A stretch of DNA of 64,000 nucleotides from a virus, in the IMG/VR virus record IMGVR_UViG_3300032245_001466, positions 1 to 64,000 of that record; one strand, written 5' to 3'. Positions 29,025 to 47,754 of this stretch are shown in pieces (within the stretch, counting starts at the first letter, position 1; the number at the start of each line of letters is the position of its first letter). The notes under the pieces were generated by a model. It was not told the DNA's origin, ran no database searches, and worked only from the letters and a program-made list of their open reading frames with translations. The translations under genes and the position numbers were made by a program.

Positions 29025-29277
29025 GCCTTTCTGTGGGGTTTGGAAGGCGCTTGGGGGCTGATTATCGAACCGCCAACCCCACTGCTGTGAAAAATCCGCC
29101 GGTGTCCCTAGCGCAGGGGCCAGGGGGGGCCTCGAGGGCGCACGAGAGGGGTTAGACCCGACCCTCCGGGTCTATCAGTCGACCAGATACAGACTGCGTG
29201 CGCGTGGCATTCTCTCCTCAGCGGCGAGACACTCTCGCCCATAGACGCATCGGACGCGATGCGAGAAGGAGTCAATC

Positions 29278-29574
29278 ATGACGGATCGAGTAGACGCAAT
29301 CGGAGCCACGCTCCTCGCAATCTTCGCGGCAACGGTTGCCGCTATGATCTTCGGCAGCGTGCCGTTCAGCGTGCTGAACGATCACGCGTTCGCCTACGCG
29401 GTGATGTCGCTCACGATGGGCGTCATCGCAGCGGTAGCGTTCTTCGCTCTCATGGAGTTCGTTGTTGTTCCTGTTGTCGATAGGATCTACTGGGCGCGGC
29501 GAGCAGCACGCCAAGAGCGCGAGCGCATTGAGCGCGCTTATCGCTCGTGGTCAGTCACGCGCAATCAGCGCTAG
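29278..29574 (+). CDS. Cassette gene, two-TM membrane protein
   Basis: AAGGAG RBS; hydrophobic helices with basic tail. Confidence 0.7.
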   Translation: MTDRVDAIGATLLAIFAATVAAMIFGSVPFSVLNDHAFAYAVMSLTMGVIAAVAFFALMEFVVVPVVDRIYWARRAARQERERIERAYRSWSVTRNQR

Positions 29575-29805
29575 TCGGATTCACCCGCTGTACCGCGGAC
29601 GCGCGGTGCGGCGGGTGGTTCGTTCGCGCCCACCTGTGGCCGCGTTCGATCTCACACACACATAATATAAGTAAGTAACTAAGTAATCTGACTAACCTAA
29701 CAGGTTCGAGACAGCGCTCCGCGCTTATCGAGGCCACCTAATGACTGACCGCTATCGTGGCATTCTCTCGGTGCGGCAGTTGCCGTATAGTTTATTGGAG
29801 GGTGT

Positions 29806-30120
29806 ATGTTCGAGTATGGTGAACCAGTCGTATCCGCAACCTACCGCAACGACGCGGTCGCAACGGTCACGATGACCTATCCGTCATTGGAGGGCAAGCT
29901 TCCAATGTGGTACACGCTTGATTTGACAATCGGCGATCTACCGCGTCTCGTTTGGGGCTACGGCGAATGGAAGGCGGGTAGCGTCAGCGATACGCCGCGC
30001 GTCTACTCACTGCTCAAGAATATTGGCGTGTGGACGGATGTGCCAGCGTTCATCCGCAGGGATGTTCTCAACGACTACGCGTCATTGGTCGGCGTGACCA
30101 TTCGCGGCAGCGTCCTGTAG
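29806..30120 (+). CDS. Cassette gene, hypothetical
   Basis: GGAGG RBS after type-A element. Confidence 0.75.
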   Translation: MFEYGEPVVSATYRNDAVATVTMTYPSLEGKLPMWYTLDLTIGDLPRLVWGYGEWKAGSVSDTPRVYSLLKNIGVWTDVPAFIRRDVLNDYASLVGVTIRGSVL

Positions 30121-30345
30121 CGCACGCAACCCCCATCGTCCAGACCATCGGGTCTGGGCGGTGGGTGGTTCGTTGGCCGCCCCCCGATGGGCACAGTTCG
30201 ATATCGAGACTCCATAATATAAGTAACAGCCTAACTAAGTTCGAAGCGGCGCTCCGCGCCTAACAACACCACCTAAACGAATCTGCTGCTCGTGGCACTC
30301 TCTTGGTGCGGGGCAACAGCACCGCAATAGTATGGAGGGAATCAA

Positions 30346-30561
30346 ATGGCGTCAACGGCATGGAATCGCAAGAGTGCTGATTGGTATCAGCACAAGGCTA
30401 CTGAGATCGTTGATATTGCGATGGACCTCACGAATCCATCGGCAGACCTGGCGTTGGGTCTAGCCCACAAATGCGCAACGGCGTGGAGCCTCTCACCGCT
30501 CAATCGTGAGAAGTTCATGATGCTCGTATACGCAACGTTCAAGAACGCAATCAAGAAGTAG
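30346..30561 (+). CDS. Cassette gene, hypothetical
   Basis: GGAGG RBS after type-A element. Confidence 0.75.
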   Translation: MASTAWNRKSADWYQHKATEIVDIAMDLTNPSADLALGLAHKCATAWSLSPLNREKFMMLVYATFKNAIKK

Positions 30562-30806
30562 ATCGACCAATAGGTCGGCAACAGAATCCACTCGCGGGTC
30601 GCAGTCGATGCGGCTCGCGGGTGGTTCGTTCGCCACCACACACAGGCCAGAGTTCTATCTCGAAGCTATGTAATATAAGTAAGTGGGTAACTAAGTTCGA
30701 CGCGGCGCTCCGCGCCTAACATGCCCACCTAAACAACACTCTGGCGTGTGGCACTCTCTGGTCAGCGGCGGACGCGCCGCGTAATCGTATAGTAGTAGGA
30801 GGTAGT

Positions 30807-31103
30807 ATGGTAGACGCAACCGTCAAGCACTACAACCCTATCGAGTGGGTTGTCTGGTTCGTAGAGGATAGGTCGCTATCTGATACGGAGAATAGCATCG
30901 AGTTCACGGAGCTTCAGGATCGTGTGAATGATCGGATCACCGCCGCAATCACGGCGCTCCGTCATTCCAATCCAAACGGCTGGCTCGATAGCCTGGATCA
31001 GGGTGGCATGCGCATCATTAACGATGCGCTCGCGCCGATCCAATGCCGCACGAATCGTCAGGACGATTCTGGCGCGTGGATCATTGAACGAGTAGACGCG
31101 TAA
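30807..31103 (+). CDS. Cassette gene, hypothetical
   Basis: AGGAGG RBS after type-A element. Confidence 0.75.
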   Translation: MVDATVKHYNPIEWVVWFVEDRSLSDTENSIEFTELQDRVNDRITAAITALRHSNPNGWLDSLDQGGMRIINDALAPIQCRTNRQDDSGAWIIERVDA

Positions 31104-31339
31104 AACATCCCCCACTCATCGCGGACGCGCGGTGGGTGGGGGGTTAGTTCGTCGCACCCCGTTCTGTGGCCAAGTTCTAACTCGAGATCCCATAATATAA
31201 CTAACAGCCTAACTAAGTTCGAGTCAGCGCTCCGCGCTTAACGAGCACACCTAAATGAATCTGCTGCTCGTGGCATTCTCTTCTTGCGAGCGATGGCACC
31301 CGTATAGCAGCGGTGCTCGCAGAAAGGTAGGTGTTCACG

Positions 31340-31582
31340 ATGTCTAAGAATGACAATCTTGCCGTCGCGATCAAGCGCCGAGACAATGCTCTCGCGTTGC
31401 TTGTAAGCGCGAAGGCGGATGTTGTTGCTGCGACGCGTCGTATCGCCGAGAGCGGTGGTTCCTATTTGGGGAATCGCCCTTCGTCGCATCCGAGCGTTCA
31501 GACAGCACAACGCGTCCTCTGGAACGTTGAAGAGCAGTACGCCAAAGCGGCGGCTGATCTGGCAACGATCCAGAAGGCGTAG
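31340..31582 (+). CDS. Cassette gene, hypothetical helical protein
   Basis: GAAAGG RBS; start could be GTG 31331. Confidence 0.7.
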   Translation: MSKNDNLAVAIKRRDNALALLVSAKADVVAATRRIAESGGSYLGNRPSSHPSVQTAQRVLWNVEEQYAKAAADLATIQKA

Positions 31583-31853
31583 CGTCCGTCTGGATTCTCC
31601 GAACCGCTCGTCGCTGCTAGGCGAGCGGTTCCCCTTCTCCCCTCACCGAGCAAGCGCGGTGGGGGGAGAGGTCTATCGGGCCTCTCTCACTACGTTCGAT
31701 CCCGACAGTCCATAATATAACTAACTAAGTAACTAAGTTCGAGTCAGCGCTCCGCGCTTAACGAGCCAACCTAAATGAATCTGCCGTCCGTGGGAATATT
31801 CATTTGCGACGGGAGAGACGTCGCCCATGTGGTTAAAGCAAATAGGAGGCTCT

Positions 31854-32126
31854 ATGACGGATACCGAAAAGAAGGCAGCTCCGGTCACGTTGCTGCCATT
31901 TGTTGTCGTGGTCGCACGACTCGTTGAATTCTACATCCCTGTAGCAGCGGCTACAGCGGCTGATGCGAGTGATATCGCTCAGCAGATGGTCATGGATGGC
32001 CATGCTGATGATTTCTCCAACGAATGCGACATCCAGGAGGATGACGTTGACGTTCGGGGGGCGACGTTTGACGATCGCAACCTGTACAAATTCTTTGACG
32101 CGGACGGCGAAGAGCACCGCTTCTAG
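31854..32126 (+). CDS. Cassette gene, acidic hypothetical
   Basis: AGGAGG RBS 4 nt before ATG. Confidence 0.75.
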   Translation: MTDTEKKAAPVTLLPFVVVVARLVEFYIPVAAATAADASDIAQQMVMDGHADDFSNECDIQEDDVDVRGATFDDRNLYKFFDADGEEHRF

Positions 32127-32392
32127 ATCCTGACCGCCATCTCTCGGCGGTCAACATCCCCCTCACCGCAGCGATGCGGTGAGGGGGATGGTAGATCCCT
32201 AGTCTCTCTCACTACGTTCGAGCTCGAGAATCCGCAATATAACTAACTAACTAACTAACCCAGAGTTCGACTCGCCGCTCCGCGGCTAACATGCGTACCT
32301 AAATGAATCGGGCGGTCGGGGCATTATGTCGGCACGGGGACGCCCGACGCGTTGTGAATCGCAACGCGAAACAGAATCAAATAGGAGGCAGT

Positions 32393-32653
32393 ATGGACGC
32401 ACTGGAAATCTTGTACAAGGTATTCGCACTATCGTATGTTGCCGAGCGCGAGGCGTATCGCAATGTTCAGCGTTGGGAGACGCTCGCAGCGGCGCAGGGG
32501 AAACCCGAACCGCAGTACGCAACCGATAGCGTGTACGCTTCGCTCATTGATGAGTGGGACGAAGCGCACAAGGAACTGAAGAAGTTTGAGCGCGAACTTC
32601 TCAAGGAGTACCGCAAGCAGCGAGCAGCGGGCACCTTCACAGTGATGGCGTAG
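32393..32653 (+). CDS. Cassette gene, hypothetical
   Basis: AGGAGG RBS. Confidence 0.75.
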   Translation: MDALEILYKVFALSYVAEREAYRNVQRWETLAAAQGKPEPQYATDSVYASLIDEWDEAHKELKKFERELLKEYRKQRAAGTFTVMA

Positions 32654-32888
32654 ACACCGCCACGACACCACACCCCATCAACCGCGGACGCGCGGTTGGT
32701 GGGGTGGTCGGTCGGTACTCTCTCTCACGTTGTTCGAGCTCGGCAGCCCATAAGATAACTAACTAACTAACTAACCAATAACTGGTTCGAATCGGCGCTC
32801 CGCGCCTAACGAGCCCACATAAACGAATCCGTCGCCTATGACATTATTCAGGTGCGGCAGTTGCCGTGTAGTATGAAAGGGGAAAGAA

Positions 32889-33215
32889 ATGTCACACGAG
32901 TTAGAGTTCAGTCACGATCCAAAGAGCGTCGCAGATCCCTGCTCTCTGGATAGTATCGTTGAGGCGTACATTGAATTCCGCAACGCACCTGTGCGTGGCA
33001 CGAATCTCGTTTATCGGCAAATGCCCGTAGACGAGATGCTCGCGATGACGCGCCGACCAGAGGATTTCATTGAGAGGCTAGGATCGTGGGCTGCGATCTG
33101 GGGTTCAGATTCTCAGCGATACGACATCGGCAAGTTCGGGTGGTGGTCCTGCTCCGAGTGCGGCGCCGATGACATTGAGTTAGGTTCATACGACGACGAG
33201 TGCGACGAAGAGTAG
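32889..33215 (+). CDS. Cassette gene, acidic CxxC protein
   Basis: GAAAGGGG RBS; GWWSCSECG. Confidence 0.75.
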   Translation: MSHELEFSHDPKSVADPCSLDSIVEAYIEFRNAPVRGTNLVYRQMPVDEMLAMTRRPEDFIERLGSWAAIWGSDSQRYDIGKFGWWSCSECGADDIELGSYDDECDEE

Positions 33216-33436
33216 TCGCCAATCGCTCCACTCTCCCACCGCTCACCGCTTCGGCGGTGGGCGGTGGTAGTTCCATCCCGAGTCTCTCACTTCGTTCGAT
33301 CTCGAAACTCCATAAGATAACTAACTAACTGGGCGTTCGATCCGACGCTCCGCGTCTATCAGGAGAACCTAAACAATAATGGCGTCTATGTCATTGTCTC
33401 TCTGCGGCACCTGCCGTATAGTTTGTAGGAGGTAGT

Positions 33437-33760
33437 ATGTCGGACACAGAAACGATGAGCCTTCAGGAGATGGCTCGCGAACTGACGGTAATGCGCATTG
33501 AGCGTTCCCGCTGCTGCGATCCATACGATTGTATGCATCACGAGATGTGCGGCGAAGAGTGGTACGGGAAATGCAGCGGCTGCGAGCGTCGTGCGTACCT
33601 TTCCAATGAATTCTACGCTGCGTGCGAAGCAGAGAATGCAGATCCTGCCGCGCTGCTCAATGCAGAAGAGCGCGCTATTGAGGATGAGCGCTTTGACTTC
33701 TACTCGCGAATGAACGAGTGGGGCAATGACGACGCTGCCTTCTGGACCGATCAAGAGTAG
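33437..33760 (+). CDS. Cassette gene, acidic Cys-rich protein
   Basis: AGGAGG RBS. Confidence 0.75.
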   Translation: MSDTETMSLQEMARELTVMRIERSRCCDPYDCMHHEMCGEEWYGKCSGCERRAYLSNEFYAACEAENADPAALLNAEERAIEDERFDFYSRMNEWGNDDAAFWTDQE

Positions 33761-33969
33761 TCGCATCACCCCGTTCACCGCTTTGGCGGTGGGCGGGGTG
33801 GTCTACCGAGGCTCTCTCACTACGTTCGATACCGAACCCCCGTAAGATAACTAACTAACCCTGAGTTCGACTCGGCGCTCCGCGCCTAACGAGAGCACCT
33901 AAATGAATCACCCCCTCGTGGCATTCTCTTGGTGCGGCACTTGCCGCGTAGTATGAAAGGGGAGCGCAA

Positions 33970-34275
33970 ATGTTTGATTGCGTAAAGCACGGCGAGGTAG
34001 CGAAGAGTCTCAGTGGCTATTGCGTTGCTTGCTGCTCAGAGGATCATATCTGCGAAACCTGCGGATTGCGCAGCGGCAGTGATGATGGCTTCACTCTCGT
34101 TGAGTGGCGCAGCACGCAAATTTGGAAGGGTCAGATGCTTTGCGATGATTGCGTTGCGTGCGCAGATTGCGAAGTTTCTGGTGACGGTACCGTGAACACC
34201 CACAACGATTACAGCGAACTGCTTTGCGATGCTTGCGTTGAGGATCGCGACGCAGAGTGGGAGAGCGAAGAGTAG
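33970..34275 (+). CDS. Cassette gene, multi-CxxC zinc-binding protein
   Basis: Several CxxC pairs; GAAAGGGG RBS. Confidence 0.75.
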   Translation: MFDCVKHGEVAKSLSGYCVACCSEDHICETCGLRSGSDDGFTLVEWRSTQIWKGQMLCDDCVACADCEVSGDGTVNTHNDYSELLCDACVEDRDAEWESEE

Positions 34276-34508
34276 TCACAACCGATCCACTCCACCATCG
34301 TCAACCGCTCGGCGGTTGGCGGTGGTGGTTCAATCGGGAGTCTCTCACTTCGTTCGATCCCGACAGTCCGTAATATAACTAACTAATTAACTAACTAATA
34401 ACTGGTTCGACTCGGCCCTCCGGGCCTATCGGCCTAACATAAATGAATCAATCGTTTGCCGTACTCTCTGGGTGCGGCGGTTGCCGTGTAGTAATAAGGA
34501 GGCTAGTA

Positions 34509-34853
34509 ATGGGAGCAATGAAGAATCAAGCAATAGAGGAGCGCAACGATAGCGTCGTTGATTATCACACATGGCGATTCGTAGAAGCCGATGGCGGTGC
34601 TGATCAGCACGCGCTAGAGTGGTGGGCGTCATCATACGCTCGCCGTGCCGATACCGCCGACGAAGCGGTAGACGTCATGGAGAAGCCGCATCACTACGCT
34701 GAGGAGATTGCAGAGTTCGCCAGCATTTATGCTGACGCGAGCGATGACGACCTCTCGCTATTCGGCTATTGGGAGTGTGAAGAGTGCGGCGAAGAGTCCA
34801 AGAGGATCTCGCACTCGATAGACATGGCGAAGACCTGCTACGGTCAGCAGTAG
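34509..34853 (+). CDS. Cassette gene, acidic CxxC protein
   Basis: AGGAGG RBS; GYWECEECG. Confidence 0.75.
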   Translation: MGAMKNQAIEERNDSVVDYHTWRFVEADGGADQHALEWWASSYARRADTADEAVDVMEKPHHYAEEIAEFASIYADASDDDLSLFGYWECEECGEESKRISHSIDMAKTCYGQQ

Positions 34854-35082
34854 CGCACCGCCCCACTCACCGCTTCGGCGGTGGGTGGGGCGGTCTATCG
34901 GGCCTCTCTCACTTCGTTCGAGCTCGCCAACCTGACTAATAACTAACTGCATAACTAACTAAGATAACTAACCTAACGTTCTGACGCTCGCTCCGCTCGC
35001 TTCGGCCGAACTATAATGAACCCAGCGATTCAGGCACTATGTCGGTGCGGGGCTTCCCGTGTTGCGATAAGGAGGCAATAAA

Positions 35083-35313
35083 ATGGTAGCGTGCCAAGAT
35101 TGTGGCGTTGAGTTCTTCAACGAGTTTGAGCCACTATCAACTATCTGCGCAGCGTGCGTAGATGAGCGCGATTCCTATTACGAGAAATGGGCGGCAGAAT
35201 ACGCTGACGCTATGGCGGAAGAAGATGACGCTTGGGAGCGCACCAAGCGCAGGATTAGCCCTGAGCGCGGGTTTATCGGAACGGATACCGACCCGCTACC
35301 AGGCGGCGACTAA
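35083..35313 (+). CDS. Cassette gene, zinc-finger protein
   Basis: AGGAGG RBS; CQDC..CAAC. Confidence 0.75.
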   Translation: MVACQDCGVEFFNEFEPLSTICAACVDERDSYYEKWAAEYADAMAEEDDAWERTKRRISPERGFIGTDTDPLPGGD

Positions 35314-35316
35314 ACC

Positions 35317-35445
35317 AGAAGCCCCTCGTTGCCACGCGGCAGCGGGGGGCTTTCTGTTTGACCCCTCCTCGCCGGGCGAGGAGGGCTTGCCCAAATAATA
35401 AGCCCCCCAAGAGCCTCGGCGGTTTCTTGGGGGGCTTGCTTTGCT
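35317..35445. terminator. Convergent terminators at the junction of the two arrays
   Basis: CAGAAGCCCC..GGGGCTTTCTGTTT (+) and AAGCCCCCCAAGA..TCTTGGGGGGCTT with AATAATA (-), flanking a type-B hairpin. Confidence 0.75.
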
Positions 35446-35455
35446 TCTGGTGTGT

Positions 35456-35773
35456 TTATGCTTCTGCCTTTGCCTCGGCTTTCGCGTCATCTACATAGGT
35501 GCGTGCGATTTCGTGCCAGTTGATTGCCTCAACCGCGGCGCGCAATAGGTCTGCCTCAAGTCCTGCCGCCTTCGTTGTCCAAGTTTCGTCAATCTCGTTG
35601 CGCAAGGTGTCCGCGAGAGTGTCGGCGGCGTCGTCCGTGTCGCCTTCGTTGTCCGTAAGAATCTCGGCGGCAATCTCCGCAACATAGTCGCTGCCGCCCG
35701 CATAGCCTTCGCCAATCCACAACGCGGCAAGCCAAGTTTCGTAGTTGCTCCAGCCGTTGTATTGTCCGCTCAT
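35456..35773 (-). CDS. Cassette gene, acidic phage protein (YNGWSNYETW family)
   Basis: AGGAGG RBS; recurring phage motif YNGW.NYETW...LW...INW.EIA. Confidence 0.8.
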   Translation of the reverse strand: MSGQYNGWSNYETWLAALWIGEGYAGGSDYVAEIAAEILTDNEGDTDDAADTLADTLRNEIDETWTTKAAGLEADLLRAAVEAINWHEIARTYVDDAKAEAKAEA

Positions 35774-35954
35774 TGTCTAGCCTCCTTCTATGCCTTGCCC
35801 AAGTGGGCTAGTCGCATTATAGAGTGAGATTCTGCGCCCTGTCAAGCGTTCTATCTCAGGTAGCCGGGGCTACCTGAGCCATAACAATAAACCCCGCCGA
35901 AGCGGGGCTTATCGTTTCACGACGGGGGGCTAGTTCCCCGTAGCGAGCATCTAG

Positions 35955-36176
35955 TTATCGCGCAAGCGCGACGGCCTCTTGTACGCGGCTTGCCGCGCCC
36001 TCGGCGCTACCGAACTCCTCAATGCCGAACACCTCAACGAGATTGTTTACAAAGTCGGTCGCCATCTTCTCAAAGTAGAAGGTCGTATCGCCCTCCGCGT
36101 CCTGCCCCTCATACCAACGGGCAAAGGTTGTGCTTGCTCCGTTTGTGTGAATCTGATACCAAGTGTTTGCGTTCAT
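35955..36176 (-). CDS. Cassette gene, hypothetical
   Basis: Second gene of a two-gene unit. Confidence 0.65.
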   Translation of the reverse strand: MNANTWYQIHTNGASTTFARWYEGQDAEGDTTFYFEKMATDFVNNLVEVFGIEEFGSAEGAASRVQEAVALAR

Positions 36177-36181
36177 TAGTC

Positions 36182-36331: not shown

Positions 36332-36492
36332 TTCTAGCCTCCTATTCCTAGCCAGCCCAAGTGGGCTACGGGCATTATAGAGTCATCTTCTGCCTGCCGT
36401 CAAGTGGTTCTAGTCCAATCTGCCGAGGCAGATTGGAGGCAAACAAAAACGAGGGGCGCACCCCTCGTTTCTGTTTTCTGAGCTGCGAAACC

Positions 36493-40255: not shown

Positions 40256-40701
40256 AGGACTTCGCAACCTTTCAGGGTGCGGCAAAGACCCAGAAACTCT
40301 CGCCACTCCTCAATAATCGCAACCCAAGCCGTAGCCTCTTCATCTGGGTCAGCCTTCGTCTTATCGTCCGTGTACGGGCTGGCAAGAAGAATACCAGTAA
40401 TAATCTTCTTGATTTCTTCTTCGCTCAACTTGGAGATGGCATTGTGTAGTTCTTCGCACTCATAGTCCTTGATGATGTTGCCGCTGTTATCGTACAGATT
40501 CTCATTGACCTCGGTGAATCCAATCTCATCGTGGAAAGCGCGCAGGTAGCCCATACCCCAAATGTTCAGTCGGAAATAGACCGCGCTTGGAGCCTTCTCA
40601 GCGTAAGAGCCGTCTGGCTCAATCCACATTGAGCGGAACTTCTTGGCGTGCGCCGCAGCCAGTTCACGATTCTCTCGCAATGAGTAGATGTCGTATCCCA
40701 T
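40252..40701 (-). CDS. Cassette gene, hypothetical (MGYDIY/YFR.N.W family)
   Basis: AGGAGG RBS. Confidence 0.75.
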   Translation of the reverse strand: MGYDIYSLRENRELAAAHAKKFRSMWIEPDGSYAEKAPSAVYFRLNIWGMGYLRAFHDEIGFTEVNENLYDNSGNIIKDYECEELHNAISKLSEEEIKKIITGILLASPYTDDKTKADPDEEATAWVAIIEEWREFLGLCRTLKGCEVL

Positions 40702-40854
40702 TTTGTCCTCCTTATTCCACACCCCAATCAGGGCAAGGTCATTGTAAGGTACCGCTCTCCGCTCGTCAATAGGTTCTAGCCAAGATGGCCGGAGCCATCT
40801 TGGGTACAACAAAAAACCGCCCGAAGGCGGTTAGTTGTTTGGAAATAATCCTGA

Positions 40855-41331
40855 CTAAACGATAACTTCCTGCGGCTCCATAAGCCCAGCCCAGATGTTT
40901 GGCACATTAGAGCGGATGCTCGTGTATCCGTCAGAGGAAATAACGAGATGGTCAAGAAACTCAATGTCCAACAGGCGCGCCCCTGCCACCAAGTCCTCAG
41001 TTAGTTTCTTGTCCTCGTCGGACGGAGTGTGGTCGCCGCTTGGGTGATTGTGAACAACCACAATGCCCTGACCGCCAGTCAGGATACAAGAGCGAAACAC
41101 TTCGTTGATGCGAACGCTTGTGCCTGTTGCCGTGCCAAGATAGACCTGCTCAATCCCGATGAGATTATTCCTTGCCCCAAGCACCATCACAAACAGCGAC
41201 TCCTGATTAGAGTCCTTTGCGAAATCGCGGAACATCTTTACTGCCTCGGCTGGCTGCTCAACCCTCTCATCGGACTGATCAGCAACCTTCTTTCTCTTTA
41301 CCACCATTTCGTATGCTTTCCAGTTCTTCAC
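40855..41331 (-). CDS. RadC-like JAB domain protein
   Basis: QE.L.V..L..RN..I, VHNHPSGD.TPS.ED..LT, LDHLVI. Confidence 0.9.
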   Translation of the reverse strand: MKNWKAYEMVVKRKKVADQSDERVEQPAEAVKMFRDFAKDSNQESLFVMVLGARNNLIGIEQVYLGTATGTSVRINEVFRSCILTGGQGIVVVHNHPSGDHTPSDEDKKLTEDLVAGARLLDIEFLDHLVISSDGYTSIRSNVPNIWAGLMEPQEVIV

Positions 41332-41876
41332 GCTACCACCACCTTTGCTGCTTCCTCTTTGGTTGTCTTGCCGCTGCGAATCTCATCTCGCAACTCAATC
41401 CCTTCCTTCATCCAGATTGCGTCAAGTTCGGCGTTGCGCTTCTCAGCGTGCTTTGCCTCGCGCAAACCTTCCTCAGTCATACGCTCAACAACGCGCTTGC
41501 GCCAAGCCGTCGGCGACTCATAAGAGGCGTTTGTTGAGAGTCCGATGTGCCGAACGATGTCGGCACGCGTCAGAGGGCGAGCCTCAAAGCAATCTGCGTT
41601 CTTATCGCCGTCTGGCTCGTTTCCGTTCCATACGGTCATCTTTGAGAGCCAACCGATTTCGTATGCGAGCGCGAGTCGCTGCTCCCACTCATCCACATTG
41701 GCTTCGGTGATTTCGTTTAGTCCAATCGTCATCGTCGCCCAGATGAAGGAGTTCGTGATTGGGCTGAGGTACTCCTCGCCGCGCACGCGTCCATCCATCA
41801 CGCTGCTCTTTGTTGCGGTGAGCCAACAGACATCATCCGCGTCCTTGATGTTTCCCACGAACCAACTTAGTGGCAT
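41328..41876 (-). CDS. Cassette gene, hypothetical
   Basis: AGGAGG RBS. Confidence 0.75.
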   Translation of the reverse strand: MPLSWFVGNIKDADDVCWLTATKSSVMDGRVRGEEYLSPITNSFIWATMTIGLNEITEANVDEWEQRLALAYEIGWLSKMTVWNGNEPDGDKNADCFEARPLTRADIVRHIGLSTNASYESPTAWRKRVVERMTEEGLREAKHAEKRNAELDAIWMKEGIELRDEIRSGKTTKEEAAKVVVA

Positions 41877-42004
41877 ACTGCCTCCTTATGTCCTCTTATC
41901 GGGAAGCCCCGACCTGCTTATTCTAAGACCACGCTTGACCCGCTGTCAAATGGGTTCTAGTCCAATGAGCCGGAGCTCATTGGAGGCGAACTATTATCTG
42001 CTTA

Positions 42005-42475
42005 TTACTTGATTTGGTTTGTCGTATAACCGCACGCCATACAAACTGGGACGGAGCAGCCTTCGGGATTGTCGCCCGTATCTACGCCCTCATCTGGGTC
42101 GCACAATCCACACGGCGCATAATCGACATCACGGCAGAGGCACTCGCTTTTCGCATCTCGCGGCAAGTCGTTGTAGTGCCTGTGCCAGTTTGCGTCGCCG
42201 TCGCGATTCAGCGCAAACTCGCAATCAGGGCGGAAGCACCAACCATCAGCAACGGCTTCCTTGTCCGACATAAATGGCGGGTGAAACTCACACTCGCACG
42301 GAGCGCAGTCCAAGCAGTAGACGAGATAGCCATCTGGCACGCTTCCATCATACTGATCAAAGTCAAGCGTATCGAATCGCGTGTACGGCATACCATTCCA
42401 AGTGCCGATGACCTTCTCGTCGGCGTAGAAGACCATCGTGGAGCAGCGAACGCATTTGTCCATCTGCCCACTCAT
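42005..42475 (-). CDS. Cassette gene, Cys-rich
   Basis: GGAGG RBS; ATGA overlap. Confidence 0.7.
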   Translation of the reverse strand: MSGQMDKCVRCSTMVFYADEKVIGTWNGMPYTRFDTLDFDQYDGSVPDGYLVYCLDCAPCECEFHPPFMSDKEAVADGWCFRPDCEFALNRDGDANWHRHYNDLPRDAKSECLCRDVDYAPCGLCDPDEGVDTGDNPEGCSVPVCMACGYTTNQIK

Positions 42476-42780
42476 TCTGCTTCCTCCCACTCCGCGCCCT
42501 GCTCAATCAGGGAAACGAATCCTTCATTTGGATCATCGTGGTTGGTGTGAACTGCCTGTACGAATCGCAACGAACAAGAGTTCTCGTACCACTCCATCAC
42601 CGCGCTCAGCATCTCATCTGGCGTGGTGTCTTCCGCGGAGATCAGCGGATCATAGCCGTACCCGCGCATCTCCGACATCTGCTCATCGTCCATCAAGACA
42701 TAGATCTTGTGGCAGGTATCAAACGCGATGCCCTTCGCATTTTCTAGATACTCCTCAACCTTGTCGAAACTCGCTGCCAT
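42472..42780 (-). CDS. Cassette gene, hypothetical (FDTCHKIY family)
   Basis: AGGAGG RBS. Confidence 0.75.
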   Translation of the reverse strand: MAASFDKVEEYLENAKGIAFDTCHKIYVLMDDEQMSEMRGYGYDPLISAEDTTPDEMLSAVMEWYENSCSLRFVQAVHTNHDDPNEGFVSLIEQGAEWEEAE

Positions 42781-42940
42781 TTCGTCCTCCTAGTTTCTAC
42801 ACGGCAACTGCCGTAGGTGGATTGTAAGGCACAACCTAGCGGCTCGTCAAATGTTCTACTCCAAGTGGCCGGAGCCACTTGGAGTAAAACAAAAATCCCG
42901 CCCCGAAGGGCGGGATTTCTGGTTGATCTTCTGGTGAAGA

Positions 42941-43903
42941 TTACGCGAGGGCGAGAATCGCCTCGCGCTTTGTCTTCGCTGCGAAGCCCGTATCCAACAT
43001 CACGCTTGACGCTCGCGCATCAAGAGCCGTTGAGCGAACGCCGCCACGATACGAAACGCCGTGATCGAGGTACTCCGCGATGGCGTTGTACACGCCCCAC
43101 TTCGTATCGCGAAGCCCGTCAAGATTCTCCGCGTTATTGAGAATCGCGAAAGTTGCCTTAGCGCGCTCCGACATTACTTCCTTATCGCGCTTCTCCGATT
43201 CAGAGAGCGGGAAGATCTTTGAGATGATGCGGAACGCCTCAGATCGCTCAATCTTCTGGGCAACCATCTGCGAGCCGATGCGCGAGAACTCATCAACAGC
43301 GGCAGAGGCAAGCCCAAGAGCGCGCTTCGCCTCCGCGACTTTCTCCTCAATCTTCGCCGTGTGGCGAAGTGTGAACGACATCTTCGCGCTTCCAAGAGCC
43401 GCGTTGAGCGTATTCTGGCATACCACGCGCACAGGAGTGATCATCGCTTTGAGCGGGAACAGCCCGTTGTGCCCATTGGCGATGACGAGGTAAGTCGTCG
43501 TGCCGCCGTTGTCGCCCTTGATCTCGATCTTCTCAGGAATCTCCAACGCCGCGAAGATCACCTGACCGCCTTTGAGTGAACCAGCCGTTTCGTAGCGCGC
43601 ACCCTCATCAAGCAGCGCGTCCGCGAACGACAGCATCTCATCGTTCTGGATTGGCGTGTAGCGGTCGCCGACAACGCCAAGAACCGCGCCGTCAGTTGAT
43701 CGAACATTTGCGCGCTTGCCCTCGATGGCGAGCGTCTTGTTGTCGAGCGTTGTGAAGATCGGCTGCTGCTTGACCTGCCAATCAAGACCCGCGGCAACGA
43801 TCATTTCCGCGCTCGTAGTAAGACCTGCGTTTGCTACGCCAAGTCCGTGCCACGGCATACCGCGCTCCGCGTTGTATGCCATCGTTTCTACCTCGTGTGC
43901 CAT
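42941..43903 (-). CDS. DUF932 / phage-plasmid TIGR03299-like protein
   Basis: PWHGLG, AGLDW.V, LGVVG..Y..IQN, ETAGSL.GG, TPVRVVCQNTL, RHT, T.WG.YNA. Confidence 0.9.
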   Translation of the reverse strand: MAHEVETMAYNAERGMPWHGLGVANAGLTTSAEMIVAAGLDWQVKQQPIFTTLDNKTLAIEGKRANVRSTDGAVLGVVGDRYTPIQNDEMLSFADALLDEGARYETAGSLKGGQVIFAALEIPEKIEIKGDNGGTTTYLVIANGHNGLFPLKAMITPVRVVCQNTLNAALGSAKMSFTLRHTAKIEEKVAEAKRALGLASAAVDEFSRIGSQMVAQKIERSEAFRIISKIFPLSESEKRDKEVMSERAKATFAILNNAENLDGLRDTKWGVYNAIAEYLDHGVSYRGGVRSTALDARASSVMLDTGFAAKTKREAILALA

Positions 43904-44088
43904 TGTGTCCTCCTTCTTTACATACGGCAACTGCCGTAAGAAGATTCTCCCACAAGCACAAGATCGCGTCAAGTTCTAGCCCAAAGGGCCGGAGCCCTTT
44001 GGGTGGAACATAATAATAAGCCCCCCGAATAATCGAGGGGCTTATTACTTTGTGGGGCGCAGGGAGGACGCCTTGCGCCCCGAAGTCA

Positions 44089-44901
44089 TCAGCCTCCGAC
44101 GATGCCGCCGAAATGCTCCTCGCAGAACGACTCAAACTCCGTCTGCGGAACGGCATCATAATCTCGCTCGCCGTATTGCGGCTTGCCATCTTCGCCCTTG
44201 TACCACGCCTCATCTGGCAGCGAGTCGCCATCGCCAAACTCACGCCGCGAGATTTCGTTTCCCGCGTGATAGACAACTTCGCCAGCGTAGCCCATACCGC
44301 CTTCGCAATAACGATGAGTAATGGTCAGCGTTGGGAATAACCCAGAGAGCGCGTGAATCACAGGCTCGGCAGGGCTCCACGCGGTATCAAAGTTGTATGA
44401 AGTTATACCCGCGACAAATGAGTCGTCGCGGTCGTGCCAAGCCTCGGAGCAGTTCCACTTTGTTCCCCAATGCTCAACATTCCAGTTGTACCACCAGTCT
44501 GGGTGTGAGGAAATCTTTGGGGTGTTGTGCTTTGGGCAGACCTCTGAGCCGCCGAACATCTGAGCAACAGAGTCAGTAATCGTGCCGTTATCAAGGTTCG
44601 TCTTCTTTACCTCAACGCCGTCCACAGCCCAATAGCCTTCTTGAGGCTCAAAGCCGTAGTCCTTCTCGTACTCGTGTCCTTCGGCTCCCTTGACCACCGC
44701 CTTGGTGATAACGAACTCTGGGTGGCAGCCACAAAGGAAATCGTTCTGATTCTCGTTGGCTGAATAGTACGGAACATCAGGAGTCGGAACAATCTTCGCG
44801 AAATCGAAGCCGTCCTCTTCGCCCTTGACCAACTCAATGAGTCGGACAATCTCCTGCTCGTTTCCGCTGATGTCTACTTGGTTTACGCACCAGTTTGGCA
44901 T
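44089..44901 (-). CDS. DUF1281/YubB(Api92)-like protein
   Basis: MPNWC.N, FDF..I.P.P, WY.W....WGTKW, FDTAWSP. Confidence 0.85.
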   Translation of the reverse strand: MPNWCVNQVDISGNEQEIVRLIELVKGEEDGFDFAKIVPTPDVPYYSANENQNDFLCGCHPEFVITKAVVKGAEGHEYEKDYGFEPQEGYWAVDGVEVKKTNLDNGTITDSVAQMFGGSEVCPKHNTPKISSHPDWWYNWNVEHWGTKWNCSEAWHDRDDSFVAGITSYNFDTAWSPAEPVIHALSGLFPTLTITHRYCEGGMGYAGEVVYHAGNEISRREFGDGDSLPDEAWYKGEDGKPQYGERDYDAVPQTEFESFCEEHFGGIVGG

Positions 44902-45022
44902 TGTGTCCTCCTTGTGTCCTCGCGGGAAGCCCCGCACCATTGGATTGTAAGCCACCGCTTCCGCTGCTGTCAAGTTCTACCTCAACAAGCCGGAGCTTGT
45001 TGAGCGCGAACTAATTATTTTT

Positions 45023-45355
45023 TTATTTATCGAAAGAGAGTGCACTAACTCCGTCAGGCGTCATGACCACATGTCCACCTTCGACGAAGATGCGTCCGCC
45101 ATCGTTAGCCTCATCATCAGATGAAATAATCAGGGAATAACGCTTGCCGTTCTGCTTGACGAATAACACGGGCATGTATGGCTCTTCCTCGCCATCGCCA
45201 ATAACTGTCCCACCAATAATCGTCGCCCCAATAAATGGCTCGACCATCTCTGTCCGAAGGTAGTGGCGCTCAATGGCATCGCGGCTCAAGCCAGTCCGCT
45301 CTTTCACTAACTGATTCCTATTGCTCAATAACTGCGCAATCGTTTCGACAGCCAT
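45023..45355 (-). CDS. Cassette gene, hypothetical
   Basis: AGGAGG RBS; SSDDEANDGG. Confidence 0.7.
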   Translation of the reverse strand: MAVETIAQLLSNRNQLVKERTGLSRDAIERHYLRTEMVEPFIGATIIGGTVIGDGEEEPYMPVLFVKQNGKRYSLIISSDDEANDGGRIFVEGGHVVMTPDGVSALSFDK

Positions 45356-45508
45356 AACTTCCTCCTTACACCTATAGGCTAACTGCCTAACCGCATTATA
45401 AGTCAGCCAATAACCGTCTGTCAAATAATAAGGTTCGGGCCTCGCTTGCGAGCTCGGGACTGCCCCAAATAATAAGTCTTGTCAACTCCCCCCACCCCCA
45501 CCCCAAAC

Positions 45509-45538
45509 TTGACTCCCCGCTATCCCCTGCCTTACAAT
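45509..45538 (+). promoter_or_regulatory. Divergent sigma70 promoter
   Basis: TTGACT-N18-TACAAT before the 45561 operon. Confidence 0.65.
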
Positions 45539-45560
45539 GCCCCCATAGGAAAGGAGTCGC

Positions 45561-45776
45561 ATGGAAATCATCACGATCATTCTCTTCTCGCCGATCCTGT
45601 TGGTTGCGTATCTCTGGCAGGTCGCAGAGGCAGACTGGTGGCAGCGGCTACATCTGGTCATGCTGCCAGTCATCTTCTTCGTAGCGGCGGGTAAGGCGTA
45701 TCTGGGAGTTCTTGGCGGTATCGGAGCGATTGTCGTTTCCACGCCATTTCTGATTTGGGCACTAAGGAGGATTTGA
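45561..45776 (+). CDS. Small membrane protein
   Basis: Hydrophobic; AAGGAG RBS. Confidence 0.65.
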   Translation: MEIITIILFSPILLVAYLWQVAEADWWQRLHLVMLPVIFFVAAGKAYLGVLGGIGAIVVSTPFLIWALRRI

Positions 45777-46018
45777 TGAAGCGTTTCAGAGTGTACATTA
45801 AGAAGATCGATGACTTCTCAGTCGATCTCTCTTACGATGGAGAGGACTTGGCTGGCTTAGAGGGTAATCAGTTGCTTGCCGCGGTTGCGGACGATGCAGC
45901 CGAGCAGGGGCTTGGCAACTGGGATTTCCTTGAAGGCAACACTATCGCGGTGACGGTAGCCGAAATCAATGAGGACGGCACCGAAGGTAACTCCTTGCAG
46001 ATCAATAAGGAGGTCTAA
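45776..46018 (+). CDS. Acidic hypothetical protein
   Basis: AGGAGG RBS; TGATG coupling. Confidence 0.7.
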   Translation: MKRFRVYIKKIDDFSVDLSYDGEDLAGLEGNQLLAAVADDAAEQGLGNWDFLEGNTIAVTVAEINEDGTEGNSLQINKEV

Positions 46019-46019
46019 G

Positions 46020-46409
46020 ATGTGGCACATCATTCACGACGAGAGCATCACGGCAAACGAGAATCTGTCGATCTGGGCGAAGGATGGCAAGGGTGATCGA
46101 GAGGTTCTCTTCGAGAAGAGCAATCAAGGTCTTGAGGTTGTCTACTATCACACAGCCTTCGACGGGATCAATGAGAAGTTCCCCGCAGCGCGGATCTGCT
46201 ACGGCTGGGATGTGATCCAGATGGAGAGCGAGGAGAAGGACGCGTTCCTTGAGCGCGTTGTTGACAACCAAGACATCCATCGGGTACTCTCTTGTGAGCA
46301 TGACTTCACCTGCGAGGAGATCTTCCACGCAGCAGCGGTCATGCTGAGCAATGAAGAGTGCGACGGCTGTGAGCCATGCGCCCGCTATGGGTACAAGGAG
46401 GAAGAATGA
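46020..46409 (+). CDS. Acidic hypothetical protein
   Basis: AGGAGG RBS. Confidence 0.7.
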   Translation: MWHIIHDESITANENLSIWAKDGKGDREVLFEKSNQGLEVVYYHTAFDGINEKFPAARICYGWDVIQMESEEKDAFLERVVDNQDIHRVLSCEHDFTCEEIFHAAAVMLSNEECDGCEPCARYGYKEEE

Positions 46410-46600
46410 AGTACACGGTGAAAGTACAGTATCCGCTCTATCTCGACATCGAGATCGAAGCAGACGACGTGCCAGAGGCGCGGGCAGAGGCGATGAAGAT
46501 CGCTGAGGCTACGCCCATTGGCGAGTGGGACGCGTATGCGCTCCCTGAGGTCTTTGAAACTGAGTGGACAGACGAGAGCGGTATCCACACCATCATTTAG
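46406..46600 (+). CDS. Small acidic protein
   Basis: AGGAGG RBS; KY.V.V....IEIEADD..EA..A pattern. Confidence 0.7.
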   Translation: MKYTVKVQYPLYLDIEIEADDVPEARAEAMKIAEATPIGEWDAYALPEVFETEWTDESGIHTII

Positions 46601-46608
46601 GAGGAATA

Positions 46609-46929
46609 ATGTTAGTTCATAAATCGTGTGATCTTCAGGACGTAGACGGTAGGGACGCGGTTGCTCGCGTTCGCCGCGGGGTCTACTTCCTTGGCAATAC
46701 GCCTGTATCGTTTGAGTTGTTCAGCACCACATCGGCAGAGGGCGGCATTCAGATTGCCGTTGCCAATGATTACGCAATCGGAGAGGGCGGCGGGTACATC
46801 GACTCGATCGAGTGCTACGACTGCGGCAAGACGGTTGAGTCGTTCCCAGAGATCGAGATGTACAAGTTGGAGCGGATTCTTGACGCGTCCCCAGAAGACT
46901 ACGACTTGGTTGAATACCATGCCGAGTGA
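46609..46929 (+). CDS. Hypothetical protein
   Basis: AGGAGG RBS. Confidence 0.65.
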   Translation: MLVHKSCDLQDVDGRDAVARVRRGVYFLGNTPVSFELFSTTSAEGGIQIAVANDYAIGEGGGYIDSIECYDCGKTVESFPEIEMYKLERILDASPEDYDLVEYHAE

Positions 46930-47140
46930 ACACCGAGGACACGAGATCGAGGTTGGGGTCTACGGCCCTAATCTTGTCAAGAATGATCAGTTGTTATTCG
47001 ATATGAGCGACATACACAACTTATCACTGGAATGCCTTGACTGTTCCGCGGTCATCGTGGATTATGACATCGACGCAGAGATGACTGTGGCGAAGGCCCG
47101 CAATCTGATCTCTGACGCAATCAAGGAGGTACTCGCATGA
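46919..47140 (+). CDS. Hypothetical CxxC protein
   Basis: H.GH.IEV..YG...LEC.DC. Confidence 0.6.
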   Translation: MPSEHRGHEIEVGVYGPNLVKNDQLLFDMSDIHNLSLECLDCSAVIVDYDIDAEMTVAKARNLISDAIKEVLA

Positions 47141-47213
47141 TCGAAACTGTCCTACCCCAAAGTTCAATTGTTTTCTTGATCGCAGTCTGGCTCTTTGCTT
47201 GGGTAACTGCTCG

Positions 47214-47387
47214 ATGATCGTGGAGGAGGCGACGGAACGGTTCCTCTGCTACGACTGCGAGGACTACCATCACGGCAAGCCATACTTCACCATGATCGCC
47301 GCGACAAAGCGCGACCCAGGCGCGTTCCTCTGTAAGGAGTGCTTCGCGGGACTAGAGAAGCGGGGGTACGTTCCCGATTCTGAATAA
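47214..47387 (+). CDS. Small zinc-finger protein
   Basis: CYDC..CKEC. Confidence 0.55.
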   Translation: MIVEEATERFLCYDCEDYHHGKPYFTMIAATKRDPGAFLCKECFAGLEKRGYVPDSE

Positions 47388-47497
47388 TAATAGCCCCGAT
47401 TAGGGGGCTAGGAGCCCTGGAAACGATAGACCCCCTCCTGGGACACCAGGTTGGGGGTTTTCGTTGCTCTCCGTGGCGCAAATCTGGGTGTGCGGTT

Positions 47498-47583
47498 GTT
47501 CTAACTCGGGACTCTGTCCCCTGGTTCTATCCCGCCAGCCCGGACAATAACTTTTGTTCGATCCCGCCAGCCCAGAAAATAAC
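47498..47583 (+). repeat. Three hairpin-less GTTC(G/T)A core motifs, two forming a 28-bp direct repeat
   Basis: GTTCTATCCCGCCAGCCCGGACAATAAC (47524) and GTTCGATCCCGCCAGCCCAGAAAATAAC (47556); third core at 47498. Confidence 0.8.
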
Positions 47584-47754
47584 CTAGCCGCGCCGTGCCC
47601 AGCCCTCTCCGCGGTATACAACCTGGATACTATTTATGCAGCGCACTAACTCACCCCCACAGTCTTCGTGGACAAGGTCCGGCACTTCGTCTGCCTTATG
47701 GAGGAGCTCAATAACTGCCTCGCACTTCTGGCACTGGTAGTCGTAGGTGGGCAT
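47584..47754 (-). CDS. FmdB-family zinc-ribbon protein (56 aa, not in ORF track)
   Basis: MPTYDYQCQKC..CGG..R.I...V.Y.G.GW; AGGAGG RBS. Confidence 0.8.
   Translation of the reverse strand: MPTYDYQCQKCEAVIELLHKADEVPDLVHEDCGGELVRCINSIQVVYRGEGWARRG

Follow-up and report, generated by a model that had tools for sequence, protein, structure and literature searches.

Promoter-early stem-loop (PeSL) cassettes have been described in T4-type myoviruses (Arbiol et al. 2010, PMC2839356; Comeau et al. 2014, PMC4122927), and the former proposes their exchange by homology, with mini-circles from the recombination of neighbouring modules as part of the picture. Modular shuffling of this type has so far been documented mainly in T4-type phages. 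Here, we describe two convergent arrays of small gene cassettes in IMG/VR virus record IMGVR_UViG_3300032245_001466, which comprises 82,937 bp with a short terminal overlap; the window analysed is its first 64 kb (64,000 nucleotides). Each cassette is headed by a composite intergenic module that contains a footed hairpin. With moderate confidence, we read these units as PeSL-like regulatory cassettes in two convergent arrays, shuffled by homologous recombination between the modules. This would extend PeSL-type shuffling beyond the T4-type myoviruses, in a more regular and denser form, and the comparison spans six genomes and independent metagenomes.

The PeSL analogy, drawn in a first-pass annotation of this DNA, proved apt when the arrays were set against PMC2839356. 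In both systems, a repeated intergenic module (about 100 bp in the PeSLs) combines an AT-rich stretch, a sigma-70-like early promoter, a stem-loop, a Shine-Dalgarno (SD) sequence and a start codon, and flanks small genes, mostly of unknown function, in a plastic region. Insertions, deletions and replacements between modules distinguish the relatives, and the crossovers are spread through the module. The sigma-70-like -35 and -10 elements are present in the left-facing (L) modules here, but the right-facing (R) modules have only a -10-like hexamer. The AT-rich stretch upstream of the -35 corresponds to runs in 13/13 L modules and to (CTAA)n in the R modules, and indels bounded by modules occur here as well, although some lie outside modules. 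In contrast, the phage lineage is unrelated (the portal is only about 24% identical to that of any isolate) and has a giant tape measure protein. The PeSL stem-loops occur at five different positions and contain G-T pairs, as far as PMC2839356 describes them, whereas the hairpins here have one geometry and position, perfect Watson-Crick pairing and a conserved foot, and stand beside separate intrinsic terminators. Moreover, there is a second module class without a -35 and with a mini-hairpin like that of phage N4, a shared 5′ leader hairpin, and an arrangement in two dense arrays of 12–17 units. Given the different lineage and a hairpin with fixed geometry, a foot and perfect pairing, the system is an analogue of the T4-type PeSLs that falls outside their family.

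Integron attC sites and REP/RAYT elements are structure-conserved palindromes with short conserved flanks, located between cassettes or genes, and in this respect they resemble the arrays. However, no integrase or RAYT was found here among five phage records, each cassette has its own promoter instead of being promoterless and served by a common one as in integrons, the junctions do not lie at one site, and the palindromes are perfect, without extrahelical bases. The lambdoid morons, as presented in PMC2839356, likewise are single genes that bring their own promoter and terminator, but they have no conserved flanks, whereas the flanks here are the repeated module. The arrays are neither an integron nor a REP/RAYT system, and they match no known RNA family; in an Rfam search of 28000–49000, only a tRNA reaches its gathering score, and the other eight matches are far below theirs.

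Architecture of the two arrays

The R array occupies 29.15–35.3 kb and consists of 12 right-facing units with one gene each, at a period of 456–564 bp. The L array occupies 35.4–45.4 kb and consists of 13 canonical left-facing units with 1–3 genes, plus two variants (Table 1), so that the roughly 27 units first reported are indeed counted (12 + 13 + 2). The span first given for the array, 29150–47590, stands up to about 45.4 kb. The part from 45.4 to 47.6 kb does not belong to it: this part holds a module-less operon (45561 to about 47390), whose gene content also differs among relatives, and degenerate GTTC repeats (47450–47590) that resemble the R modules' first GTTCGA element. When the 82,937-bp genome was searched with sequence-only profiles, the R profile gave 12 matches at 29149–35050 and, elsewhere, only two weak partial matches at 47507–47583, while the L profile gave 13 matches, all at 35812–45015. 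Every array unit has its own promoter-like site, and in both arrays each cassette appears to be insulated transcriptionally by its composite intergenic module; here and below, promoters, timing classes and terminators are consensus matches.

The L modules are built in the following order. An AT-rich run, TTATTGTT or ATAATAGTT in 13/13 modules, is followed by GTTC.., a palindrome of 10 + 4 + 10 bases,.TAGAAC, 0–5 bases and TTGAC(A/G). After 17–18 bases come TA.AAT, the leader hairpin, AGGAGG and ATG. Wherever the adjoining gene was called, its start codon lies 86–96 nt from the palindrome. Sigma-70-like sites number 26, as compared to 10.6 ± 2.9 in shuffled sequences, and those scoring at least 10/12 lie almost exclusively on the - strand (14, versus 1 on the + strand); all 14 module promoters, L1–L14, score at least 9/12. 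A canonical intrinsic terminator precedes the palindrome in at least 7/13 L units (judged partly by eye), and a separate upstream terminator is missing in 5/13. As the L modules carry a consensus sigma-70 promoter, the L genes are probably immediate-early and would be read by the host RNA polymerase.

The 12 R modules (R1–R12) align over about 220 nt. First, a GC-rich, terminator-type hairpin lies directly past the stop codon, and is followed by GGT.GTTCG or TCTCTCAC. Second, the first GTTCGA, a half-palindrome and CATAATATAA lead into a (CTAA)n run, which provides stops in all three frames. In the middle of the module, the second GTTCGA and three bases precede a 5-bp stem with a TCC loop, and then TA(A/T)C followed by G. 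Finally, the 3′ part consists of the box ACCTAAATGAATC, twelve variable bases, TGGCATTCT, the leader hairpin (for example, GCGGCAGTTGCCG), AGGAGG and ATG. This promoter part has a -10-like hexamer, which keeps A-11 and T-7, and lacks a -35, in place of which the conserved box lies at about -30. The “-10” and leader of the R modules align with those of the L modules as an inverted repeat. The simplest reading is that the R module would be a host-polymerase promoter in which the box at about -30, together with an upstream element in fixed phase, takes the place of the -35. This design is reminiscent of the T4 middle promoters with their MotA box. With no -35, a box and an upstream mini-hairpin in fixed phase, the R modules probably represent a later class that would need a phage factor.

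A foot, GTTC(G/T)A, and a fixed hairpin had been claimed for every boundary. This is mostly so, but the foot of R1 is GTTAGA and that of R12 is GTTCTG, and the fixed 5-bp stem does not extend to R12, in which only the core heptamer is found. On the + strand, GTTCGA occurs 29 times and TCGAAC 7 times, and GTTCTA occurs 21 times and TAGAAC twice, both concentrated at 30–45 kb. In both arrays, the hairpin is preceded on its 5′ side by the foot when read along the + strand, despite their opposite transcription; with only two arrays, this common polarity could be due to chance.

Proposed exchange of cassettes between modules

The relatives were found by pattern scans and a DUF932 protein scan of IMG/VR, and five of them (G001–G005) were fetched over the whole region; in later scans, three more IMG/VR contigs were found to carry L palindromes. 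With the window genome designated G000, the numbers of R-type and L-type (- strand) modules are 12 and 13 in G000, 14 and 16 in G005, 14 and 17 in G001, at least 7 and 14 in G004, which is a fragment, and 0–1 and 14 in G002 and G003. In the latter two genomes, homologous genes are preceded by a variant module, R′, whose parts follow each other in the same order. The R′ modules (L081:6516-12624 in G003, with a match in G002) have longer stems, CTCGCC-TCC-GGCGAG, a AAAAAGAATCTC box and a GATGATGG “-10”. Some genes of G002 and G003 are linked only by a 61–81-nt linker composed of a hairpin and an SD sequence.

Collinearity does not extend to the relatives, in which cassettes have changed order, been replaced, or been gained or lost. 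When the DNA of distant relatives is compared to the window, their R arrays match almost only in the modules, and not in the genes. The order of gene clusters in the R array runs 7, 70, 71, 10, 12, 72, 73, 13... in G005, as compared to 7, 71, 12, 70, 12, 92, 10, 13, 73... in G001. In the L arrays, the 27-28 and cluster-30 cassettes vary in place relative to common neighbours, and several cassettes are found in a single genome. The DUF932 cassette lies between clusters 36 and 38 in G000 and G004, between 79 and 27-28 in G005, and between 32 and 35 in G002 and G003. Its palindrome arm, ..CAAAGGGC, is kept in 6/6 genomes while the upstream neighbour changes, which shows that the palindrome travels with the downstream promoter and gene.

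Could the arrays have arisen by the tandem duplication of gene-plus-module units and their subsequent divergence, so that relatives differ by loss and divergence only, with no exchange? The 456–564-bp period of the R array and the paralogues within it (R8 and R11 in one cluster, R10 and R12 in another) would suit such a history, but 0/12 R proteins match Pfam and most of them fall into separate clusters. Furthermore, R10 is replaced by unrelated ORFs between conserved flanks, and the same cassette occurs at different positions relative to common neighbours, which loss alone cannot produce. We therefore consider duplication without exchange highly improbable.

As first proposed, the units are self-contained cassettes. 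In close genome pairs, the ends of indels lie in module sequence that is repeated on both flanks. G000 and G004 differ by a 363-bp extra cassette at the L1 element, with 41 bp of the element at both flanks, and in G004 two other cassettes take the place of the R10 ORF; the breaks lie at about 33946, in the leader hairpin, and 34266, at the stop codon. In G002 and G003, three cassette indels in the R′ array have flanking repeats of 95, 61 and 61 bp, and at least one of these repeats is the hairpin-plus-SD linker, without a foot hairpin. Since the modules fill nearly all of the intergenic space, the evidence for exchange is the repeats at both flanks and not the location of the ends. The close pairs also contain other changes, namely two differences within the module-less operon (G000 and G004), and one gene indel within an L cassette and two differences outside the arrays (G002 and G003).

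Metagenome contigs from four runs, which represent three other studies and one further sample of the source's study, were matched at 90% likeness. In a 3455-nt X4 contig, R1–R4 are present and R5 is skipped, with a joint from 31151 to 31730 that contains 53 other letters and has sides of 255 nt. The R array contains 13 of the 15 listed joints; 12 of them begin and end in R modules, and one end of the other is at 30546, just within gene R3. Of the remaining two, one is at the 42.47-kb gene junction, and the other deletes the gene that opens the module-less operon. The R joints end in the (CTAA)n run, directly past the terminator hairpin, and in the -10/leader part, and define no single site. 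Joints at which a contig “goes back” come from related phages and not from circles.

Several observations weigh against exchange between the modules. Most of the metagenome joints have a short side (18–52 nt) in repeated module sequence and are possible placement artefacts; because short-sided R joints may sit on the wrong module copy, we place weight only on the long-sided ones. In a crude test, the association of gene-adjacency breaks with an intervening module is not significant in 8/8 genome pairs (Fisher p 0.09 to 1), with noisy gene calls, and selection for intact genes alone would also place breakpoints in modules. Genes are gained and lost without modules as well: in G004, a 159-bp gene is inserted at the 42470–42475 gene junction of the L11 cassette, at which there is no module, and similar changes affect the cluster 80 gene (after cluster 34) and the 45.5–47.4 kb operon. 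Exact matches among the R modules of the window reach 37 nt, with at least 20 nt in 9/66 pairs, whereas those among the L modules are at most 18 nt, with at least 20 nt in 0/91 pairs. This identity is too low for efficient homologous exchange of L cassettes within a genome, and yet distant relatives reorder them. Finally, the strict Watson-Crick palindromes, the heptamer and the C-purine register of the hairpins are superfluous for a simple promoter-terminator module.

How, then, would the cassettes be exchanged? Repeated 12–17 times per array, the module would double as portable homology, and general homologous recombination between modules would insert, delete, replace and reorder cassettes. 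Homology-driven exchange fits the observation that the R array, which has the longer shared matches, is more variable than the L array, which is collinear over 3.8–5.9 kb in the metagenome contigs (5.9 kb in X4). The phage exonuclease with a partner and the RusA resolvase, or host enzymes, may perform the exchange. The single-strand annealing protein call for 20431–21000, made in the first-pass annotation, could not be substantiated, as this gene matches only PHROGs of unknown function.

The same annotation had proposed a structure-read acquisition machine like attC or REP/RAYT. In such a scheme, a dedicated enzyme would recognise the folded hairpins, as happens at attC, REP/RAYT or IS200/IS605 ends, and cut and join the cassettes there. 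Such a platform would account for a structure that is kept while its sequence changes, for the conserved foot beside the hairpin, for the invariant C-purine step at a set distance from the R hairpin, and for a palindrome that travels with its cassette; the PeSL authors float the same idea for their stem-loop (PMC2839356). However, the absence of an integrase and an HUH nuclease, noted at first for the window alone, extends across five records, of which three are complete and four are at least 90% complete: tyrosine recombinases (PF00589) were found in 0/5 records, with the control positive in 14/14 genomes, and Y1 HUH transposases (PF01797) in 0/5, in a search of phage records only; serine recombinases were not searched. 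Moreover, the junctions are dispersed over the AT-rich run, promoter, leader and SD parts instead of one site, some indels use repeats without a foot hairpin, and the array with the best hairpins, the L array, is the more stable one. In addition, the foot orientation, GTTC...GAAC, is the reverse of the AAC...GTT of attC. A dedicated cutting and joining enzyme is thus very unlikely, and recombination through module homology is the reading that we retain.

The hairpins as proposed DNA signals

The conservation of the hairpins as structures with changing sequences, an early claim, was confirmed by the covariation in the L palindromes and by loop-anchored counts of the R hairpins. In the 13 L hairpins of the window, the inner helix is paired in 130/130 cells, and 8/10 pairs change on both sides while one-sided changes are absent. 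With a covariation score of 0.609, they exceed the shuffles (0.165 ± 0.031; 0/500 reach it) and the slid controls (at most 0.137). Between the window and G004, which are about 89% identical, 6/13 orthologous L stems differ, and each of them still pairs. In a search of the window and related loci (237,926 bases), a covariance model built from the 13 palindromes gave 163 matches. The 150 best matches comprised 114 non-identical and 94 full-length sequences, 75 of which have TGAC in the 3′ tail and are promoter-linked; the other 19 full-length matches, either promoterless copies or readings of the reverse strand, were dropped. In the 75 promoter-linked palindromes, with 50 distinct arms, the inner helix is Watson-Crick paired at 749/750 positions, with one G-U and no mismatch, although this count comes from copies picked and aligned by a structure model, which favours pairing and is a further point on the side of caution. 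A sequence-only profile found 88 - strand modules in six genomes, and a plain search for at least nine perfect pairs beside a GTT foot found 92 palindromes; these two lists were not cross-matched one by one, but the similarity of the counts implies that no large class of imperfect L copies is hidden.

The other hairpins of the same modules behave differently. In minimum free energy folds, the leader hairpins contain 67 G-U among 401 predicted pairs, and the upstream terminator-like hairpins contain 61 among 647. Across the lineage, the loops of the L palindromes are CGCG (22), GGCG (16), CGCC (12), which is the reverse complement of GGCG, and TCCG (15), the last found only in the window and its closest relative. 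The nearly complete lack of G-U pairs, the loops that are not strand-specific and the terminators that lie upstream argue that the L palindromes are structure-constrained as DNA on both strands, and not as RNA. The footed palindromes and the mini-hairpins would be DNA-level parts of the promoter module.

Alternatively, the hairpins may act as RNA, forming 3′ stem-loops on read-through transcripts that serve as a terminator or attenuator, an RNase III site or an exonuclease block, a role also attributed to the PeSL stem-loop. In PMC2839356, the stem-loops of PeSLs act as terminators in a reporter. In this genome the L loops are YNCG on the sense strand in 12/13 cases, the R loop is TCC on the sense strand in 41/41 copies, and 5/13 L units have no separate upstream terminator, which speaks for this reading. 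Nevertheless, G-U pairs make up 1/750 in the palindromes, as compared to 9–17% in the RNA hairpins of the same modules, the L loops flip strand in relatives (GGCG 16 versus CGCC 12), no U-run follows the palindrome, and at least 7/13 palindromes already lie behind a canonical terminator. We consider a function as RNA unlikely. The idea that the L loops are UNCG tetraloops was rejected, as the relatives have CGCG, GGCG and CGCC loops in both orientations.

The structure model gave no match in 599,527 bases of bacterial DNA that fit the linear pattern, and a single weak match (19 bits) in the rest of this genome. It was also applied to 27 other viral loci, 22 of which came from contigs with a single pattern match; 18 of these 22 were unmatched, and L012 was matched. 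An origin of the palindromes from host REP-like elements was considered and rejected: the bacterial linear-pattern scan returned at least 120 stretches with single matches, and 0/80 of those listed fit the structure model.

Next, we analysed the R hairpins. We selected 41 distinct copies from six genomes, with a perfect stem of at least 5 bp and GTTC within 16 nt, and the R and R′ counts were anchored on the loop; the MAFFT alignment, in which R′ is two columns out of register, was not used for pairs. The central C, T, C, C and G, including the sense loop TCC, are invariant in 41/41 copies, and the heptamer is GCTCCGC in 31/41 and CCTCCGG in 10/41. Irrespective of stem length, the C located nine bases past the loop is also invariant and the next base is a purine (32 G, 9 A); further downstream, A, C, T, A, A and A are strongly conserved. 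By eye, all 46 R modules that the profile found in four genomes contain one of the two heptamers, and in about ten of them the outer stem pairs are lost but the heptamer stays in register. The -10-like hexamer lies 40 nt from the loop in the R copies counted and 44 nt from it in the R′ copies of G002 and G003, again by eye.

On the template strand, the R heptamer reads GCGGAGC. In PMC13037366, this is the heptamer bound by the N4 mini-virion RNA polymerase (mini-vRNAP), and the promoter has a 5-bp stem and a 3-base GGA loop. In PMC4496689, a GC-rich heptamer is centred at -11, the bases at -11, -10 and -8 and the C at +1 are recognised, and transcription starts eight nucleotides past -8; the two sources together describe three hairpin promoters and a 3500-aa polymerase. 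The R hairpins resemble these early promoters on the template strand in the 5-bp stem, the GGA loop, the heptamer, the outer pairs that vary but remain paired, and the set distance to the start position, at which the sense strand has G (template C) in 32/41 copies and A in 9/41. They differ in that there are 12–14 per genome with no polymerase detected, as compared to three with a 3500-aa polymerase in N4, in the sigma-70-type -10 that follows at a fixed 40 nt, and in the equivalent of the -8G, which varies (matching in 31/41 R copies, C in 10/41).

Are the R mini-hairpins, then, single-stranded DNA (ssDNA) promoters of the N4 kind, used by an unrecognised hairpin-specific polymerase, or priming signals? 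The template heptamer is the one bound by the N4 mini-vRNAP, the C at -1 and the purine at +1 are present in 41/41 copies independently of stem length, and copies with a broken outer stem retain the heptamer and the register by eye. On the other hand, no such polymerase was found: PF00940 was detected in 0/5 records, a weak negative as the control genomes are without the family, the giant ORFs are tape-measure- and tail-like, and the others are at most 762 aa. The C at the -8G equivalent in 10/41 copies, and the sigma-70-type -10 and leader at a fixed 40 nt (R) or 44 nt (R′), which align with the L promoters, also speak against it. We therefore consider this possibility quite unlikely, and prefer to read the mini-hairpin as an upstream element of a host-polymerase promoter. 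A sigma-70 region 2 (PF04542) was found in 0/5 records, and neither a DNA polymerase nor an RNA polymerase was seen among the proteins encoded by the genome.

Two giant ORFs were considered as polymerases and rejected. The 3611-aa ORF, examined as a virion RNA polymerase by means of PHROGs, Pfam, language-model features, tblastn and homologues, gave only tape measure matches. Its likeness to tape measure proteins is confined to residues about 1630–2050, with a lysin-like segment near the C-terminus, and its N-terminal 1600 residues, which no match explains, are low in aromatic residues and rich in A, E, L and K, a composition of helical type. The gene runs from L085:12054-19937 into window positions 3–3077, across the record ends, and four other full-length homologues were found (3650–3772 aa). 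The 1590-aa ORF at 3078–7850, after the tape measure gene, has an S/T/N/V-rich composition like that of a tail fibre or spike and weak tail-protein features, and has no match in PHROGs, Pfam, PDB sequences or isolated phages. No other ORF of the genome exceeds 762 aa. A very divergent or small hairpin-reading enzyme is possible.

A further, minor possibility is that an unrecognised dedicated factor reads the folded, footed hairpins. The R hairpins would then be ssDNA initiation signals for transcription or priming, and the L palindromes would be extruded cruciforms that gate the early promoters or are cut for cassette exchange; their perfection on both strands would follow from the need for each strand to fold. 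In that case, a structural DNA signal of the N4 style would be known for the first time beyond the virion-polymerase phages, with 12–17 uses per genome. In any case, strict Watson-Crick palindromes whose arms change together, and an N4-like heptamer without a polymerase, pose a testable puzzle on DNA structure as a signal.

Coordinates, phage lineage and cassette cargo

The positions of the modules, their genes and the adjoining features are summarised in Table 1.

Table 1. Array modules and associated features (positions in the window)
Feature	Position	Strand	Elements	Genes and remarks
PD-(D/E)XK exonuclease	20997-21869	+		candidate recombination enzyme
RusA-like Holliday-junction resolvase	23220-23735	+		candidate recombination enzyme
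R1 module	29148-29277	+	GTTAGA foot, GACCC-TCC-GGGTC, loop 29165-29167, -10-like, leader hairpin, SD	29278-29574
R2 module	29575-29805	+	terminator hairpin, GTTCGA, AT-rich TAA repeats, loop 29718-29720	29806-30120
R3 module	30121-30345	+	loop 30253-30255	30346-30561
R4 module	30562-30806	+	loop 30709-30711	30807-31103
R5 module	31104-31339	+	loop 31231-31233	31340-31582; cassette absent from X4 contig
R6 module	31583-31853	+	loop 31751-31753	31854-32126
R7 module	32127-32392	+	loop 32279-32281	32393-32653
R8 module	32654-32888	+	loop 32799-32801	32889-33215
R9 module	33216-33436	+	loop 33349-33351	33437-33760
R10 module	33761-33969	+	loop 33879-33881	33970-34275; ORF replaced in G004
R11 module	34276-34508	+	GGCCC-TCC-GGGCC, loop 34419-34421	34509-34853
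R12 module	34854-35082	+	heptamer GCTCCGC only, loop 34992-34994, foot GTTCTG	35083-35313
Convergence point of arrays	35314-35455		terminator-like hairpins on both strands
L1	35816-35885	-	palindrome with feet 35848-35885; TTGACA-N18-TATAAT 35845-35816	35456-35773 (DUF7249)
L2 module	36374-36444	-		36182-36331, 35955-36176
L3 module	36945-37016	-		36493-36900 (DUF3846)
L4 module	37414-37483	-	sense loop CGAG, the sole flipped loop in the genome	37031-37372
L5 module	37880-37947	-		37574-37837
L6 module	38330-38402	-		38032-38289 and a possible 26-aa hydrophobic ORF
Putative non-coding RNA gene, about 200 nt	38410-38668	-	promoter 38664-38635 (TTGACA-N18-GATACT), terminator 38446-38407	in a cassette slot
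Variant palindrome	38722-38759	-	arms of 10, loop AGCT, TAGAAC foot, no adjacent -35
L7 module	39393-39459	-		39142-39351, 38927-39145, 38793-38927
L8 module	39998-40069	-		39672-39956
L9 module	40741-40810	-		40252-40701, 40079-40255
L10 module	41920-41991	-		41328-41876, 40855-41331 (RadC-like JAB)
L11 module	42821-42890	-		42472-42780, 42005-42475
L12 module	43944-44010	-		42941-43903 (DUF932)
L13 module	44944-45011	-		44089-44901 (DUF1281_C/Api92-like)
L14 variant	45395-45470	-	TTGACA-N18-TATAAT 45395-45424, different upstream inverted repeat	45023-45355
Module-less operon	45505-47390	+	promoter 45509-45538	about 7 small genes; outside the arrays
Three direct repeats	47450-47590	+	GTTC(T/G)A then TCCCGCCAGCCC..ATAAC; no hairpin	adjoin tRNA-Ile

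The virus is read as a freshwater tailed phage of a new, uncultured lineage. The genome encodes a portal, an SU10-type capsid protein, a terminase and a prohead protease fused to a ferritin-like domain; the last is a 722-aa protein (13804–15972, - strand) with the prohead serine protease domain at residues 97–174 and the ferritin-like domain at 337–473. It further encodes a replication initiator, a DnaC-like loader, the RusA-like resolvase and the PD-(D/E)XK exonuclease, as well as MazG, glycosyltransferases, tail fibre proteins and two ParB-like proteins of the ParB/Srx nuclease type (50314–50832 and 56142–56822). A megablast search of the whole stretch against isolated phages gave no match, and the best identity of the portal to that of any isolate is about 24%. 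The public runs that contain parts of the stretch are labelled as freshwater, lake, pond and wastewater metagenomes.

Among the array proteins are DUF932, RadC-like JAB, DUF3846 and Api92-like members, together with many ORFans of zinc-ribbon-like type. It is likely that early anti-defence or host-takeover genes are stored in the arrays, and the modules could thus help to locate genes of this kind and to construct expression cassettes. In keeping with such a role, short palindromes of the restriction type are strongly depleted within the arrays (29150–45430): CCGG occurs 13 times versus 54 expected and GGCC 20 times versus 74 expected, and CCWGG occurs 4 times, as compared to 126 in the rest of the genome. 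The remaining CCGG sites lie at hairpin apexes in 11/13 cases.

One cassette slot is occupied by the putative non-coding RNA gene. This gene is 99.5% identical to its counterpart in G004, where the flanks are about 89% identical, and 85–89% identical to those of four more distant relatives. RNAalifold predicts 65 pairs, 16 of which have compensatory changes, together with many G-U pairs and one-sided changes. The gene matches no Rfam family, and a 54-aa ORF within it has no SD sequence. In addition, about 200 nt without a convincing ORF (39470–39670, - strand) lie between the L8 gene and the L7 module and end in an 18-bp terminator stem; this segment is conserved in G004 (98.7%) and, in part, in G003 only.

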